Part shown: positions 9,771 through 57,242 of the stretch, piece by piece
How positions within the stretch are numbered: the first letter of the stretch is position 1
Layout: every line of letters begins with the position of its first letter
Source of the DNA: a virus
DNA length: 64,000 bases
Direction: 5' to 3' (one strand)
IMG/VR virus record: IMGVR_UViG_3300043411_000910
Span: 1-64,000 of that record
Program-made: the position numbers and the translations under genes
The notes under the pieces: generated by a model
Database searches by the model: none
Told to the model about the DNA's origin: nothing
What the model saw: the letters and a program-made list of their open reading frames with translations, nothing else

Positions 9771-10670
9771 ATGGATATAAAAGCTCGTGGTGAATACCTT
9801 TCACCTACTGATACAGTAGGATTAACAATACAATTACGCGATCAGAATGGTCAACCCATTGATGCTGATTCATTTCCAACAATATCTCTAATATCTCCAA
9901 CTGGACTAGTTATCCTAACTCCAACCTCCCAAGGTGTAGAAAAGTTAGATACTGGAAAATATCAATTTACATTCAGTATCCCAATAAATGGTCCATTTGG
10001 AGTTTTTCAAGATTTATGGGTTGTTTATATAAATGGAGTTAGGTATGAACAAACTTTCCAATTTATAGTTGCTCATACTCAATTCGTTGGGATAAACATA
10101 GATGGTTATGAAAAACTTGGTGAAGATGTTGGTTTTGATTACTCACAAGAAGCTATTCATAATATAAATGTTTTATTGAAAATGCTAAGAGCTAGACTTA
10201 ATAGCTCAGGAAAATCTTTAATTAAAGATTCAAACGGAAATGATATGTATATAGATTGCGATATATTTGCAACTGATATACTTGTTACATTTTTATCTAC
10301 AGCGCTTGAAGATTTTAACCAAACACCTTATTTTACATTTTTCCAATTTAATGACTCAAGCTTTGTTGCTCAATTTGGCGCTATTCTTGTTGAAATAGCT
10401 GCTTATTATGCAATGGCAAGTATGGCGCTCATTGAACGTGGACGTGAAGCAACTTTAAATGACTCTTCGCTTTCTTTTCAACCACCAACGGTATCGGAGC
10501 TACTTAATACTCAATATTCAACACTTTTAACCCATTGTTATGAAAAATTAAAATATATAAAAAATAGCCTTCGTCCTAACCCTATAGGGTTAGGAGTTTT
10601 TACTATGTCTGGATATTCTAACCCAGCCATAGCTAGACTTAGACACGCGCGCGAGAGGCGTTTGGTTTAA
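9771..10670 (+). CDS. Probable neck/head-tail adaptor protein with an N-terminal Ig-like domain
   Basis: Beta-sandwich N-terminus and helical C-terminus; sits between head and tail genes. Confidence 0.6.
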   Translation: MDIKARGEYLSPTDTVGLTIQLRDQNGQPIDADSFPTISLISPTGLVILTPTSQGVEKLDTGKYQFTFSIPINGPFGVFQDLWVVYINGVRYEQTFQFIVAHTQFVGINIDGYEKLGEDVGFDYSQEAIHNINVLLKMLRARLNSSGKSLIKDSNGNDMYIDCDIFATDILVTFLSTALEDFNQTPYFTFFQFNDSSFVAQFGAILVEIAAYYAMASMALIERGREATLNDSSLSFQPPTVSELLNTQYSTLLTHCYEKLKYIKNSLRPNPIGLGVFTMSGYSNPAIARLRHARERRLV

Positions 10671-10744
10671 GAAACCAGCATTAATTTACATATATTTTTT
10701 AAAATAGTAGTCGCCTGTTGTTATAGTATATGTTAGGGATATGT

Positions 10745-54014: not shown

Positions 54015-57000
54015 ATGGATAGAAAAACTATTACAGCTGAGCAGAATATATGGTTTAATTCTCAACAAATAGATGAAGACAACTTAAACCTAGAACAAGA
54101 GTATAATAATACAACAAAATCTTCACTGGTTTCTAATCATATAGGTTCAGGTGTATTAATTGATGGCTTAACCCAATTAGAATATTTTTCAACAGAAGAT
54201 GTTACTTCAACTATAGATGGAAATGTATTAACACCAAAAGCTCAACCAAGCGATATTAATTTTGGAAATCAATTAGAGGTATCTCTAGATCAATCAAAAG
54301 TATTTGGAAGAAGAACGGTAAAATGTGTTGTGATAGGTACTGACTACAATGACTCATTGATCTTCGAACAATTTGTGTTCAATAGAAACGAATCACAATT
54401 TGGCTCAAAACATTTTAAGAAAATAATAACTGTTTTGATAAATGACTTATCTGGAGATTCCGGCAAAAGCTTTAACCTTGGTGGGGTTTTAAAAGTAAAA
54501 GAAGCGAAGCAATCTATACTTTCAAGAGATACTTTATCTGTATATCAAAATTATCAACCAAATATATTTTGGAGAGATTTTTATAGCTTACAAACAGTAG
54601 ACTTAAATAGTCTATTAGAGTTAGCTTTACCAACATATGATATATCTTCTTTAAATATACAAACCTCAGAATTTACCACAAGATCTATAATAAAAGATGA
54701 TATCTCGACAGAACTAGGACAGAAGTTTAAAGCAAAATCAAATAATATTCAAAAAATAAGATTATTGGTTTCTGTTGAAAATACAGAATTTGGTTCAGAA
54801 ACAGATTTAGAATGGAATGGAGAAATGGTTTTAAGTGTATATCCACTACAATCAACAATATCTTGTCCTTCTGATATTGCTCCTAATTTAGAAATAGATT
54901 TTGATCCAATCAATTCTCCTATAGCTCAAGTTAGTTTTAGTTATGCAACTTTACTTGCTTCTGGAATACAATTATCTAATACATTACAGCCAGTGGAATT
55001 TGTATTGTCAAACATTTCAGTTGGCACAAACAAAAAGATAGAGAAAGACAAATACTATCTACTATCTCTTAAACGTTCTGGCTCTGCGGATAAGTGTAAC
55101 ATTACGCTAGGCATCTCTGAGAATTTACTAACAGATAGCAGGCTTGTTGTTAGTAACGGCGAGATTTGGGTTGACGTACAGGACGAAAGTTTATGGTTTG
55201 AAATAGAATCAGATACAGCCAAACTTTCATCTGGTAAAATATATGAAGATGGTTTTGGTATTGAAATAGAAAAAACTAAAACTGATTCAACTGGCACATA
55301 TGATTATTCATTAAGTGGTTTATCATTTCATGGTAATTCAGAATTCACTGGAGTTGTTAGTTCAGTTACTAGTTCTTATTCAGAGGTTGAAGATACTAGA
55401 ACTGGCGGAACTACTTATTCAGTTCAAAAGAAAGTTCCAGATGTTAATCTATTATCATCAATAGAGCTATCAGATTTAGAATCAACTAAAACTTTATTGA
55501 AAGTTGGAAAGATACTAGATAAAAATAGAAAACTCGTTCCAAGTAATATAATAAACTCCAATTTACATTCTTGGAGTTTTGTAAAGAACCAAATAATAAT
55601 ACCAATTGTTGATGATGCAACAGATGGATACAGATATGATGGTTATGTAAATACTTTAGTTTCTAGCTTAATCAATGGTGAGTTATTTTTATCCAAGATA
55701 ACACCAAATAATTTAAGCTCATCATTGTCCTACAGAATAGGCGATGCAGAAGTTAGGACATTAATTTATGGTGATTTAAATGGGGATTGTATAGTAGATG
55801 AATCAGATCTTGATCTATTAAACTACTATTCTGATTTCAATTTAAATTCATCACCAAAATTAGATTCTGTTATGGTTAGTGATGGAATATCTCCAGCTAC
55901 ATATGAGAATGGTTACAAGTTTTTAACTAATCCAAGTAAATCAGCTTCATCATTAGACTTTCAAGTTGTTTTAAAGTCAAGCGGAGCTATGTTAGCTCAA
56001 GCACTTGATGGTGTTTTAGTTAATTCATCAAATACACTTTCAAGCTTTTCAAGTGCCAGTATAGATTTTTCAGCAATAACAAATCTAACAGATTGCGTAC
56101 TATTAGTATTTGATGGAACTAATTCAGAAAATTATGGTGCGTTTGATATCAAATCAATAAATACAGCAACAGATACTTTAACCATAGGTAAAAAATACAT
56201 TGATGAATCTGTAATGCTTTCTTTATTAGCTGGCAACATAGACCAAGATTTTTATATAGGTCCAAATGATGGTTACATATTGGAAAGCTATTTAGTTAGA
56301 GAGAGATTAACTTCTTTTGATGCTACACCATATCCAAGTGTTACTTCAAATTACTATGATAAGGTTGGGAAAACATTTCAAGCCGTTATTCTAAAAATAG
56401 AATCTATTGTAGATAGAGATGATGAATATTCAACAGATTTGTTTACCAGAGACTCAGTAGTCCATCCTATAAAAGATATATTCACACTTGATGTGAATTT
56501 ACAAGATTTAGATCTATTAAATAATCCAGTACAGTTTACTATAGAACCAAGATTAGTTTGGAAAAATTATCTTGTTGTTTCTGAATCAGATGTAAAGCTT
56601 GTTCCAAATGTATTAACATCTGGATCTGGATCACAAGAACCATGTCAAGAATTATGTGAGAAGCCAATTGTCTATCCAGTCAAACCAACATTTGACAAAG
56701 GCAAAAATGATTTCTTTGTACCAGATAATTTAATAATCAACAATGGTCAAATTTTAAACAATGATGGATCATATCATAAAGTAGATTTTGAGGTTGGTAC
56801 AATTATGCTTGAGATCCCAGATAATTTCTACGGTAACGAGCAAAGCATAAATATATTCACGGCTTTTGTTTGTGATAACGAATCCACTGGTAAAACAATA
56901 CAAGGGTTCCCAGCTATGAAATTTGCCGACTGTACATTTGTTAAATCTGATTCAATATCTAAAGGACAAGTAAAATTTGATATAGCAATACAATCATTTT

Positions 57001-57242
57001 TCCCTAACCTAGATGGATACAGTGAAGATTTAGATCCAGGAATAATTGTTGATGGTAAAATGGGTGTTTACGTAGATCAAACAACTGGTATACTAACATT
57101 AAACTTTACTAATTTATCATATGACTCCTCTACATTTACTGGGTCAACTAGATTACAAATAAATGTATTTTTAAAGAAATCTGGGTTCAACAACAACACT
57201 TTGAGTGTTAATAAAACAATAGTTAATAACTTGTTTATATAA
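54015..57242 (+). CDS. Large virion/baseplate-associated protein with dockerin-like EF-hand repeats
   Basis: NIWFNSQQIDEDNLNLEQ N-terminus; LGQKFKA; YGDLNGDCIVDESDLDLL; AGGA precedes ATG 54015. Confidence 0.7.
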   Translation: MDRKTITAEQNIWFNSQQIDEDNLNLEQEYNNTTKSSLVSNHIGSGVLIDGLTQLEYFSTEDVTSTIDGNVLTPKAQPSDINFGNQLEVSLDQSKVFGRRTVKCVVIGTDYNDSLIFEQFVFNRNESQFGSKHFKKIITVLINDLSGDSGKSFNLGGVLKVKEAKQSILSRDTLSVYQNYQPNIFWRDFYSLQTVDLNSLLELALPTYDISSLNIQTSEFTTRSIIKDDISTELGQKFKAKSNNIQKIRLLVSVENTEFGSETDLEWNGEMVLSVYPLQSTISCPSDIAPNLEIDFDPINSPIAQVSFSYATLLASGIQLSNTLQPVEFVLSNISVGTNKKIEKDKYYLLSLKRSGSADKCNITLGISENLLTDSRLVVSNGEIWVDVQDESLWFEIESDTAKLSSGKIYEDGFGIEIEKTKTDSTGTYDYSLSGLSFHGNSEFTGVVSSVTSSYSEVEDTRTGGTTYSVQKKVPDVNLLSSIELSDLESTKTLLKVGKILDKNRKLVPSNIINSNLHSWSFVKNQIIIPIVDDATDGYRYDGYVNTLVSSLINGELFLSKITPNNLSSSLSYRIGDAEVRTLIYGDLNGDCIVDESDLDLLNYYSDFNLNSSPKLDSVMVSDGISPATYENGYKFLTNPSKSASSLDFQVVLKSSGAMLAQALDGVLVNSSNTLSSFSSASIDFSAITNLTDCVLLVFDGTNSENYGAFDIKSINTATDTLTIGKKYIDESVMLSLLAGNIDQDFYIGPNDGYILESYLVRERLTSFDATPYPSVTSNYYDKVGKTFQAVILKIESIVDRDDEYSTDLFTRDSVVHPIKDIFTLDVNLQDLDLLNNPVQFTIEPRLVWKNYLVVSESDVKLVPNVLTSGSGSQEPCQELCEKPIVYPVKPTFDKGKNDFFVPDNLIINNGQILNNDGSYHKVDFEVGTIMLEIPDNFYGNEQSINIFTAFVCDNESTGKTIQGFPAMKFADCTFVKSDSISKGQVKFDIAIQSFFPNLDGYSEDLDPGIIVDGKMGVYVDQTTGILTLNFTNLSYDSSTFTGSTRLQINVFLKKSGFNNNTLSVNKTIVNNLFI

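Follow-up and report, generated by a model that had tools for sequence, protein, structure and literature searches.

Why does the tripeptide Asp-Gly-Tyr (DGY) recur across the virion proteins of a single phage? The question arises at IMG/VR virus record IMGVR_UViG_3300043411_000910, in which a first-pass annotation had counted about 30 copies in ten outer virion proteins and proposed that DGY is an acceptor sequon for glycosyltransferases (GTs) encoded just downstream. We analyzed positions 1 to 64,000 of this record, hereafter the window, which is a fragment of a freshwater/wastewater megaphage (myovirus) clade, and we refer to its proteins by the start coordinates of their open reading frames (ORFs; Table 1). 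The DGY enrichment is a real motif and is new to the literature; no publication of a DGY motif or sequon in phages was found in our literature search.

Translations of the 42 main ORFs in the window contain 30 in-frame DGY in total, spread over ten virion ORFs, and all other window ORFs, once translated, lack the tripeptide. The per-protein tally of the first-pass annotation was reproduced throughout (Table 1), with the ORFs that it began at 9771, 21875, and 54015 here beginning at 9762, 21854, and 53994. The tandem copies DGYGDGY (17836), DGYEIVSYTDGY (45590), and DGYRYDGY (55623) were also verified, and Tyr follows 30 of the 73 DG pairs in the ten DGY proteins (41%), close to the earlier estimate. 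As had been anticipated, only a few copies are expected by chance: 3.9 from composition, 5.5 from the DG count multiplied by Tyr frequency, and 8.9 under a first-order Markov model. The enrichment holds under composition shuffles (n = 5000; 3.78 ± 1.98 DGY, maximum 15) and under deliberately conservative DG-preserving shuffles (n = 5000; 8.73 ± 2.88, maximum 20), and DGY is the top outlier among all tripeptides (Poisson p 2e-8, the runner-up being at 7e-4). Among residues that follow DG, Tyr is found 30 times against 5.5 expected, and Thr (15 versus 7.1) is the sole other clear excess beyond a handful of counts. In a positional scan, only D stands out before GY and only G between D and Y, and each of the five permutations of these residues has 2-6 copies in the window. 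The description of ten unrelated proteins stands insofar as ten ORFs carry DGY; however, it overstates the window statistics, because the signal is borne by five proteins that are individually significant (12749, 15988, 38363, 47011, and 53994; P<=0.004), whereas the other five, at one or two sites apiece, are each non-significant by themselves. Beyond the window, the 88-kb record continues for 24 kb of non-structural sequence with a single DGY, in ORF 70002-70589.

The same enrichment was found in relatives of this phage. In the relative G001 we counted 35 DGY where 6.9 are expected, and in the relative G002, 28 over its first 100 kb where 6.1 are expected, with the same orthologous families carrying or lacking DGY in the window, G001, and G002. 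Pooled across the clade, we obtained 83 DGY against 12.3 expected in 11 further sheath loci, 386 against 58.8 in 33 loci with the GT4-like gene described below, 401 against 37.3 in 79 orthologs of the 53994 protein, and 888 against 57 in 166 large virion proteins, in which the permutations occur 49-113 times each; these proteins are mutually related, so that their counts are not independent. Likewise, 120 homologs of the neck protein carry a mean of 4.73 DGY against 0.50 expected, at five conserved sites and sporadic ones. Near-variants in the 166 virion proteins gave observed/expected counts of 73/63.5 for DGF, 91/70 for NGY, 11/30 for EGY, and 13/76 for DSY. The motif is order- and residue-specific, with no excess of DGF or NGY.

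The complete genome of G002 shows where along a megaphage chromosome the excess lies: DGY is overrepresented at 0-120 kb (33 versus 7.0 expected) and 440-460 kb (7 versus 1.1), whereas the 320 kb of non-structural sequence between 120 and 440 kb have 13 copies against about 15 expected. The enrichment is confined to virion modules. In the GT cassette and downstream genes there are 7 DGY versus 13.7 expected (p 0.04, from non-independent loci), a depletion too mild for us to infer avoidance. We rejected the idea that phage structural proteins are rich in DGY in general, since 33 DGY versus 27.0 expected (1.2x) were counted over the structural regions of six unrelated control phages (T4, phage K, P-SSM2, crAss001, 0305phi8-36, and SPO1) and a T4 relative, and Tyr follows DG in the control phages at 1.25x. 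Because these controls pool near expectation, the five- to fifteen-fold excess is specific to the clade. Among them only T4 (75-125 kb; L025) has a mild excess (10 versus 2.8, p 7e-4), with copies scattered over gp7, gp8, gp12, gp18, gp27, UvsW, and others, and we leave this excess unexplained. T4 gp6 and phage K baseplate queries retrieved close relatives only and were of little use as broad controls.

Among relatives, some DGY sites are deeply conserved, and many arose independently. In three-way alignments (G000, G001, and G002), DGY is common to all three genomes in the sheath, in the 21854 protein, and in the giant 15988 protein, where one DGY sits in an invariant GDGYW; many other sites are lineage-specific, and lineage-specific and tandem insertions were seen, such as DGYSDGYSDGYS inserted in G002. 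The sheath site lies within an insertion that precedes the C-terminal sheath domains, which are conserved. Among the 120 neck homologs, site 20 reads DG-[Y/Q/S/T/E/H], replacements that are consistent with an exposed Tyr, site 174 reads [D/S/N/A]-G-[Y/F], and site 276 reads D-[G/K/A/Q]-Y. An alignment of the 53994-like family (31 sequences, 46% mean identity) has 34 distinct DGY columns, none of them universal and 14 of them singletons. Elsewhere in the family these columns hold DFA, DVD, DDY, MIV, NGL, or DPR, so that DGY was reached from unrelated starting tripeptides, some without Gly. Orthologs of the 47011 protein at the 33 GT4 loci range from 1 to 16 copies. The sites also cluster, with 23 of the 130 gaps between successive DGY being 10 residues or less.

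Predicted structures place most of the modeled sites in loops. In an AlphaFold2 (AF2) model of the neck protein (predicted local distance difference test, pLDDT, 78.6), the N-terminal part forms an FN3 domain and the C-terminal part resembles the neck and stopper proteins of phage 812, and a Foldseek search with this model matched both phage 812 neck/stopper proteins and FN3 domains. Sites 20, 119, and 174 fall in predicted inter-strand loops of the model; pLDDT drops below 50 at site 276 and immediately ahead of site 218. For residues 541-780 of the giant protein, an AF2 model with a pLDDT of 55.8, read for secondary structure only, assigns four DGY to loops between strands or to the beginning of a strand. 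With regard to the earlier proposal of exposed loops, 7 of the 9 modeled sites are in predicted loops or at loop-strand edges, and the two other neck sites are at or next to positions with pLDDT <50.

The motif is exact, order-specific, confined to outward-facing virion proteins, without a general excess in the control phages, recurrently gained, variable in number, and located in predicted loops. Sites with a trans-acting reader behave like this, glycan-shield sequons being a familiar case, whereas a universal turn or packing motif would not, and on balance we lean towards DGY being read by something.

A candidate for such a reader lies immediately downstream, where, as the first-pass annotation had noted, GT genes are found: a GT4-like gene whose product has an EX7E motif, two GT2 genes, and a gene for an SDR-family protein resembling dTDP-glucose dehydratase. 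The GT4-like gene starts 18 nt past the stop of the last structural gene, 53994, and no terminator-like site was seen in this 18-nt gap. Its product matches Pfam Glycos_transf_1 (PF00534) with E 6e-5 (23.1 bits against a cut-off of 26.4), and PDB profiles of GT1-family C-terminal domains (E 1e-6) and of PBCV-1 B736L (3oy2; E 9e-5). Across 28 GT4-like sequences, E263 of the EX7E motif is invariant and E271 is at least 90% conserved. The best NCBIfam match of the SDR protein is dTDP-glucose 4,6-dehydratase (E 7e-61, under the equivalog cut-off). Of 79 loci anchored on the 53994-like gene, 69 have a GT4-like gene downstream of it by a first filter; re-inspection added two (L127 and L138, contigs of L090 and L092), and the rest mostly reach the contig end. 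A natural GT4 knock-out was sought among the 79 loci and none was found, the gene of L186 being about 430 nt beyond the locus, and every relative with sufficient sequence coverage has the gene. The order neck, baseplate, GT cassette, and UvsW is kept in G001 and G002. We also observed TATAAATA, which we take to be the T4 late-promoter consensus box, at 57238-57245 and 62638-62645, where it precedes the starts of the GT4-like gene and of UvsW by 16 nt and 3 nt, respectively; of the 19 copies on the plus strand of the genome, 4 are located 40 nt or less ahead of a start, versus 3% by chance. The structural genes are without the box, and we drew no conclusion on timing from it.

Taking the motif and the cassette together, we tentatively propose, with less than even confidence, that DGY is a surface linear motif under positive selection on the outward-facing neck, sheath-insertion, baseplate, and fiber proteins, and that it may be read by the GT4-led cassette, with putative O-glycosylation of its Tyr. 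The cassette would be expressed together with the late structural genes, and O-glycosylation would begin in the cytoplasm, with the GT4-like enzyme initiating the glycan at the Tyr hydroxyl; the Asp at -2 and the flexible Gly would be the putative recognition elements. The optional GT2 enzymes and the nucleoside diphosphate (NDP)-sugar dehydratase might then extend or vary the glycan. In other words, we infer that DGY would have a reader, that the reader would be the GT4-like enzyme, that Tyr would be the acceptor, and that expression would be late. The fullest version, in which this globally distributed clade would coat its tail, neck, and baseplate with Tyr O-glycans at a DGY sequon written in the cytoplasm by a GT4-led pathway, we regard as possible and rather doubtful.

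Several observations weigh against glycosylation by this cassette. G002 and several other relatives that keep the DGY enrichment lack both GT2 genes and the Fpg-like gene. Since the GT4-like gene and the DGY enrichment are found throughout the clade, their association amounts to one evolutionary event and provides no correlation. DNA modification, such as glycosylation, is a live alternative role for the cassette because of the adjacent UvsW gene, the Fpg/Nei-like DNA-binding protein that the cassette of some members encodes, and the thymidylate-synthase-family protein encoded by G001 and G002. The non-virion proteins of G002 do not avoid DGY (the 13 copies against about 15 given above), and an indiscriminate cytoplasmic enzyme might select against such copies. 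The major capsid protein, although exposed, is without DGY. Finally, the conserved neck sites 174 and 276 tolerate differing substitutions, and some sites are therefore probably structural. The first-pass proposal of a GT acceptor sequon is thus upheld in part, as far as predicted loop placement, order specificity, recurrent gains, and virion restriction go, and is weakened by the dispensability of the GT2 genes and the presence of the GT4-like gene throughout the clade.

The alternative that fares best is an intrinsic structural or adhesive loop with no dedicated reader, in which an Asp-Gly turn and an exposed Tyr would bind Ca2+, host glycans, or neighboring subunits, so that the tail surface would present many weak "sticky" loops, a design inherited and amplified within the clade. 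Predicted positions at loop-to-strand boundaries of beta-rich domains are consistent with such loops, as are the deep conservation of several neck sites with site-specific tolerance (e.g., Y/F at 174), the frequent retention of D and G when Y changes (DGT, DGE, DGV, and DGA), and the mild excess in the T4 structural region. Some sites are, in addition, genuine Ca-binding dockerin loops: 53994-like proteins of relatives contain a Dockerin_1 module (E 3.5e-10, above the Pfam cut-off), whose Ca loops read GDVNGDGYINDAD and ADVDGDGYITSTD with Y at position 7. The dockerin/EF-hand loop D-x-[DN]-x-D-G-x-[ILV] (PF00404) resembles these sites in having DG at positions 5-6, with Y at 7, and differs in that D is found at -4 in only 24 of the 221 non-redundant clade sites (about 11%), a count that does not test the full EF-hand pattern. 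The Ca-loop pattern itself, D-x-[DN]-x-D-G followed by a hydrophobic residue and an acidic residue at position 12, occurs at a few of the relatives' sites, and the window sites are without it. In EF-hand geometry, position 7 binds Ca by its backbone oxygen only and the side chain points to solvent, so that the Tyr preference at this position would not reflect core packing; we know of no preference of canonical dockerins for Tyr at position 7. A turn preference, moreover, should be universal, yet the control phages are close to expectation when pooled, and a turn or packing motif should accept NGY and DGF, neither of which is enriched. The gain of DGY at columns that elsewhere lack Gly (DFA, DVD, DDY, and MIV) and the variation in ortholog copy number also argue against an intrinsic loop. 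On the whole we consider this explanation rather unlikely, and it retains a share of our confidence because the conserved neck sites look structural, the dockerin Ca context is real, and the GT4-like gene is present in every relative with sufficient coverage.

A different reader is clearly unlikely in our judgment. It might be an enzyme of another Tyr- or Asp-directed modification (sulfation, phosphorylation, nucleotidylation, or oxidative cross-linking), a cement, chaperone, or decoration protein that docks on DGY, or a host factor. All of the evidence for a read motif applies to it equally, and the GT cassette may serve DNA instead. However, Pfam and PHROGs point to no candidate enzyme in the structural module, barring the patatin-like lipase and the homing endonucleases, and a stoichiometric docking partner fits badly with 1-16 copies at shifting positions.

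It is very improbable that DGY is not itself selected and was inherited with a cryptic repeated domain spread through the virion proteins. All-against-all BLAST of the window proteins recovered one shared module of about 100 aa, linking the sheath (474-612), the 42983 protein (848-935), and the 53994 protein (652-775) with E-values of 1e-4 and 0.012 (window DNA 23170-24585, 45524-45787, and 55947-56318). This module contains three of the 30 DGY sites; its sheath copy is without DGY, BLAST detected no further similarity, and many DGY sites are lineage-specific gains. The big DGY proteins match no Pfam domains other than Baseplate_J and those of the sheath, apart from a prealbumin-like (SpaA_4) match of the 53994 protein that stays under the threshold, and PHROGs assigns only the sheath and wedge families among the DGY proteins. 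The flanks are mostly unrelated, as previously noted, with no extended logo across the 221 sites and only weak signals (G or W at +1, I or E at -1). With no common family by BLAST, Pfam, or PHROGs, a shared domain was rejected as the general cause.

To a nucleotide-level signal, in which GATGGWTAY would act as a DNA or RNA site (e.g., Chi-like, a modification target, or a translational pause), we give next to no credence, and this reading is already largely refuted. The window copies do show a codon skew (GAT 30/30, GGA 63% versus a background of 35%, TAC 40% versus 18%; p 0.002-0.02), even as the Gly and Tyr codons vary (GGA 19, GGT 9, GGC 1, GGG 1; TAT 18, TAC 12), as the first-pass annotation had remarked. 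However, all 30 plus-strand matches to GATGGNTAY in the window are in frame 0 (there is one minus-strand match), with the degeneracy tracking third codon positions, and the GGA/TAC/GAT skew is not reproduced in G001 (TAC 3/35, background 0.11), G002 (GGA 16/52, background 0.31), or other relatives. The enrichment also holds across 25 to 48% GC at the 33 GT4 loci. Order specificity, the common frame, and the lack of codon skew in relatives bear out the earlier view of DGY as a protein-level motif rather than a DNA repeat.

Table 1. DGY-bearing proteins and glycosyltransferase cassette of the window, and dockerin modules of relatives. Numbers in brackets after DGY counts are DNA positions in the window.
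Feature	Coordinates	Strand	Remarks
302-aa virion-module protein	9762..10670	+	1 DGY (10101); non-significant alone; G002 homolog 54% identical
524-aa neck protein, N-terminal FN3 and neck/stopper-like fold	12749..14323	+	5 DGY (12806, 13103, 13268, 13400, 13574); P=0.0006
397-aa protein with DUF5907 repeat	14331..15524	+	1 DGY (14454)
1961-aa giant neck-region protein	15988..21873	+	5 DGY (17329, 17836, 17848, 17992, 18052); P=0.003
263-aa protein	21854..22645	+	1 DGY (22241), kept in G001 and G002
918-aa tail sheath	22750..25506	+	1 DGY (23998), kept in G001 and G002
738-aa baseplate-module protein	38363..40579	+	3 DGY (39335, 39668, 39761); P=0.002
1343-aa gp6/Baseplate_J-like wedge protein	42983..47014	+	2 DGY (45590, 45617), in C-terminal extension
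2326-aa distal baseplate/fiber protein	47011..53991	+	7 DGY (49387, 50380, 51187, 51316, 52057, 53473, 53554); P<0.0002
1082-aa last structural protein	53994..57242	+	4 DGY (55623, 55638, 56268, 57012); dockerin type I module in family
GT4-like glycosyltransferase, EX7E E263...E271, candidate reader	57261..58379	+	GT1-family C-terminal profile matches
GT2 glycosyltransferase, optional in clade	58376..59071	+	Pfam PF00535 E 3e-19; no G002 homolog
Fpg/Nei-like H2TH protein, optional in clade	59034..59915	+	
317-aa conserved cassette protein	59908..60861	+	In most of 33 GT4 loci; weak DUF7003 match only
Second GT2 glycosyltransferase, optional in clade	60861..61685	+	
NDP-sugar 4,6-dehydratase/epimerase (SDR)	61682..62629	+	Pfam Epimerase E 1e-49
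Dockerin type I module, relative	L095:6492-9413, residues 586-654		
Dockerin type I module, relative	L102:7237-9912, residues 503-571		

The record is rated about 21% complete, and relatives in IMG/VR reach 350-480 kb, with G002 (472,749 bp) rated complete. The neck protein has at least 791 homologs in public metagenomes, and DNA near-identical to window positions 47011-56000 (62-92% of sampled words) was found in wastewater, aquatic, and freshwater metagenomes from at least three other studies; an exact-peptide-word search with the 47011 protein returned no relatives. Against cultured phages, tblastn searches with the neck protein and the 5155 protein gave no match, and the sheath gave remote matches only (28-31% identity). 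In the neck protein, C321, C323, and C335 are invariant and C338 is at least 90% conserved, and there are three invariant His-x-His pairs (H473/475, H497/499, and H518/520), which presumably resemble the metal-binding HxH motifs of phage fibers.

Other features of the region concern mobile elements and the head genes. The major capsid gene is split into segments at 2840-3136 and 4328-5104, each of which matches the same 339-aa G002 protein (56% and 76% identity), and the 1.2-kb gap between them holds a LAGLIDADG/HNH endonuclease ORF (3286-4251); this arrangement fits an intron or similar insertion. The UvsW-like helicase (62648-64000 in the window, its ORF reaching 65365 in the genome) is 905 aa long versus 489 aa in G002, and because it bears intein-splicing and LAGLIDADG homing-endonuclease domains, an intein has been inserted in it. 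Homing-endonuclease-like ORFs (phrog_4645; HNH/EndoVII) also lie between structural genes at 10730-12217 and 25534-26370, and copies recur at differing places in relatives. The head/neck module also contains a gene for a patatin-like phospholipase (7163-8113; Pfam E 5e-29), which is kept in G002.

If glycosylation at DGY were confirmed, the virion surfaces of very abundant giant phages would be chemically decorated in a manner predictable from sequence alone, with a bearing on host recognition, resistance to proteases and grazing, and environmental persistence. DGY would also stand as the first defined code for protein glycosylation in a bacterial virus, and a new Tyr-directed cytoplasmic sequon would join the short list of sequons and might serve as a three-residue tag for glyco-engineering. 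Even without a reader, the repeated gain of an exact tripeptide on ten virion proteins needs explanation. In either case, DGY marks outward-facing virion proteins in megaphage genomes that are otherwise unannotatable.

Among the closest known systems are the GT4 (GT-B, EX7E) enzymes, which include GtfA, the cytoplasmic protein O-GlcNAc transferase of serine-rich-repeat adhesins, and PBCV-1 B736L. The 57261 protein is like this family in its EX7E motif, GT1-family C-terminal domain, and match to B736L; it differs in falling under the Pfam cut-off and in that no similarity specific to the protein-modifying members was seen. Short sequons are established in several glycosylation systems, including N-X-S/T, D/E-X-N-X-S/T of Campylobacter PglB, and D-(S/T)-(A/I/L/V/M/T) of O-glycosylation in Bacteroidota. 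DGY is similar to three-residue sequons in being a bare motif whose acidic residue closely precedes the putative acceptor, in its enrichment on exposed proteins, and in its rapid gain and loss while density is kept. It would differ in having a Tyr acceptor, in a cytoplasmic reaction, and in the use of soluble transferases rather than an oligosaccharyltransferase, all of which are putative for DGY.

Virion glycosylation by phage-encoded GTs has been described for mycobacteriophages Che8 and Rita (Freeman et al., 2023, as cited in PMC11256854). As far as that citing account goes, the likeness lies in the phage-encoded GTs and in virion proteins as the proposed targets. Che8 and Rita, as portrayed there, are small siphoviruses of Actinobacteria, whereas the present case concerns a myovirus clade of about 400-470 kb, a set of neck, sheath, baseplate, and fiber proteins, and a defined tripeptide. 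In bacterial S-layer proteins, glycans are O-linked to Tyr through beta-Glc or beta-Gal, often with rhamnose-rich cores (PMC2943079); their assembly takes place on a lipid carrier, an O-oligosaccharyltransferase transfers them outside the cytoplasm, and the review reports no sequon (PMC2943079). By contrast with this lipid carrier and extracytoplasmic transfer, the reaction proposed for the phage would be cytoplasmic; the phage cassette nevertheless encodes a dTDP-glucose-dehydratase-like enzyme, in which it resembles S-layer Tyr glycosylation.

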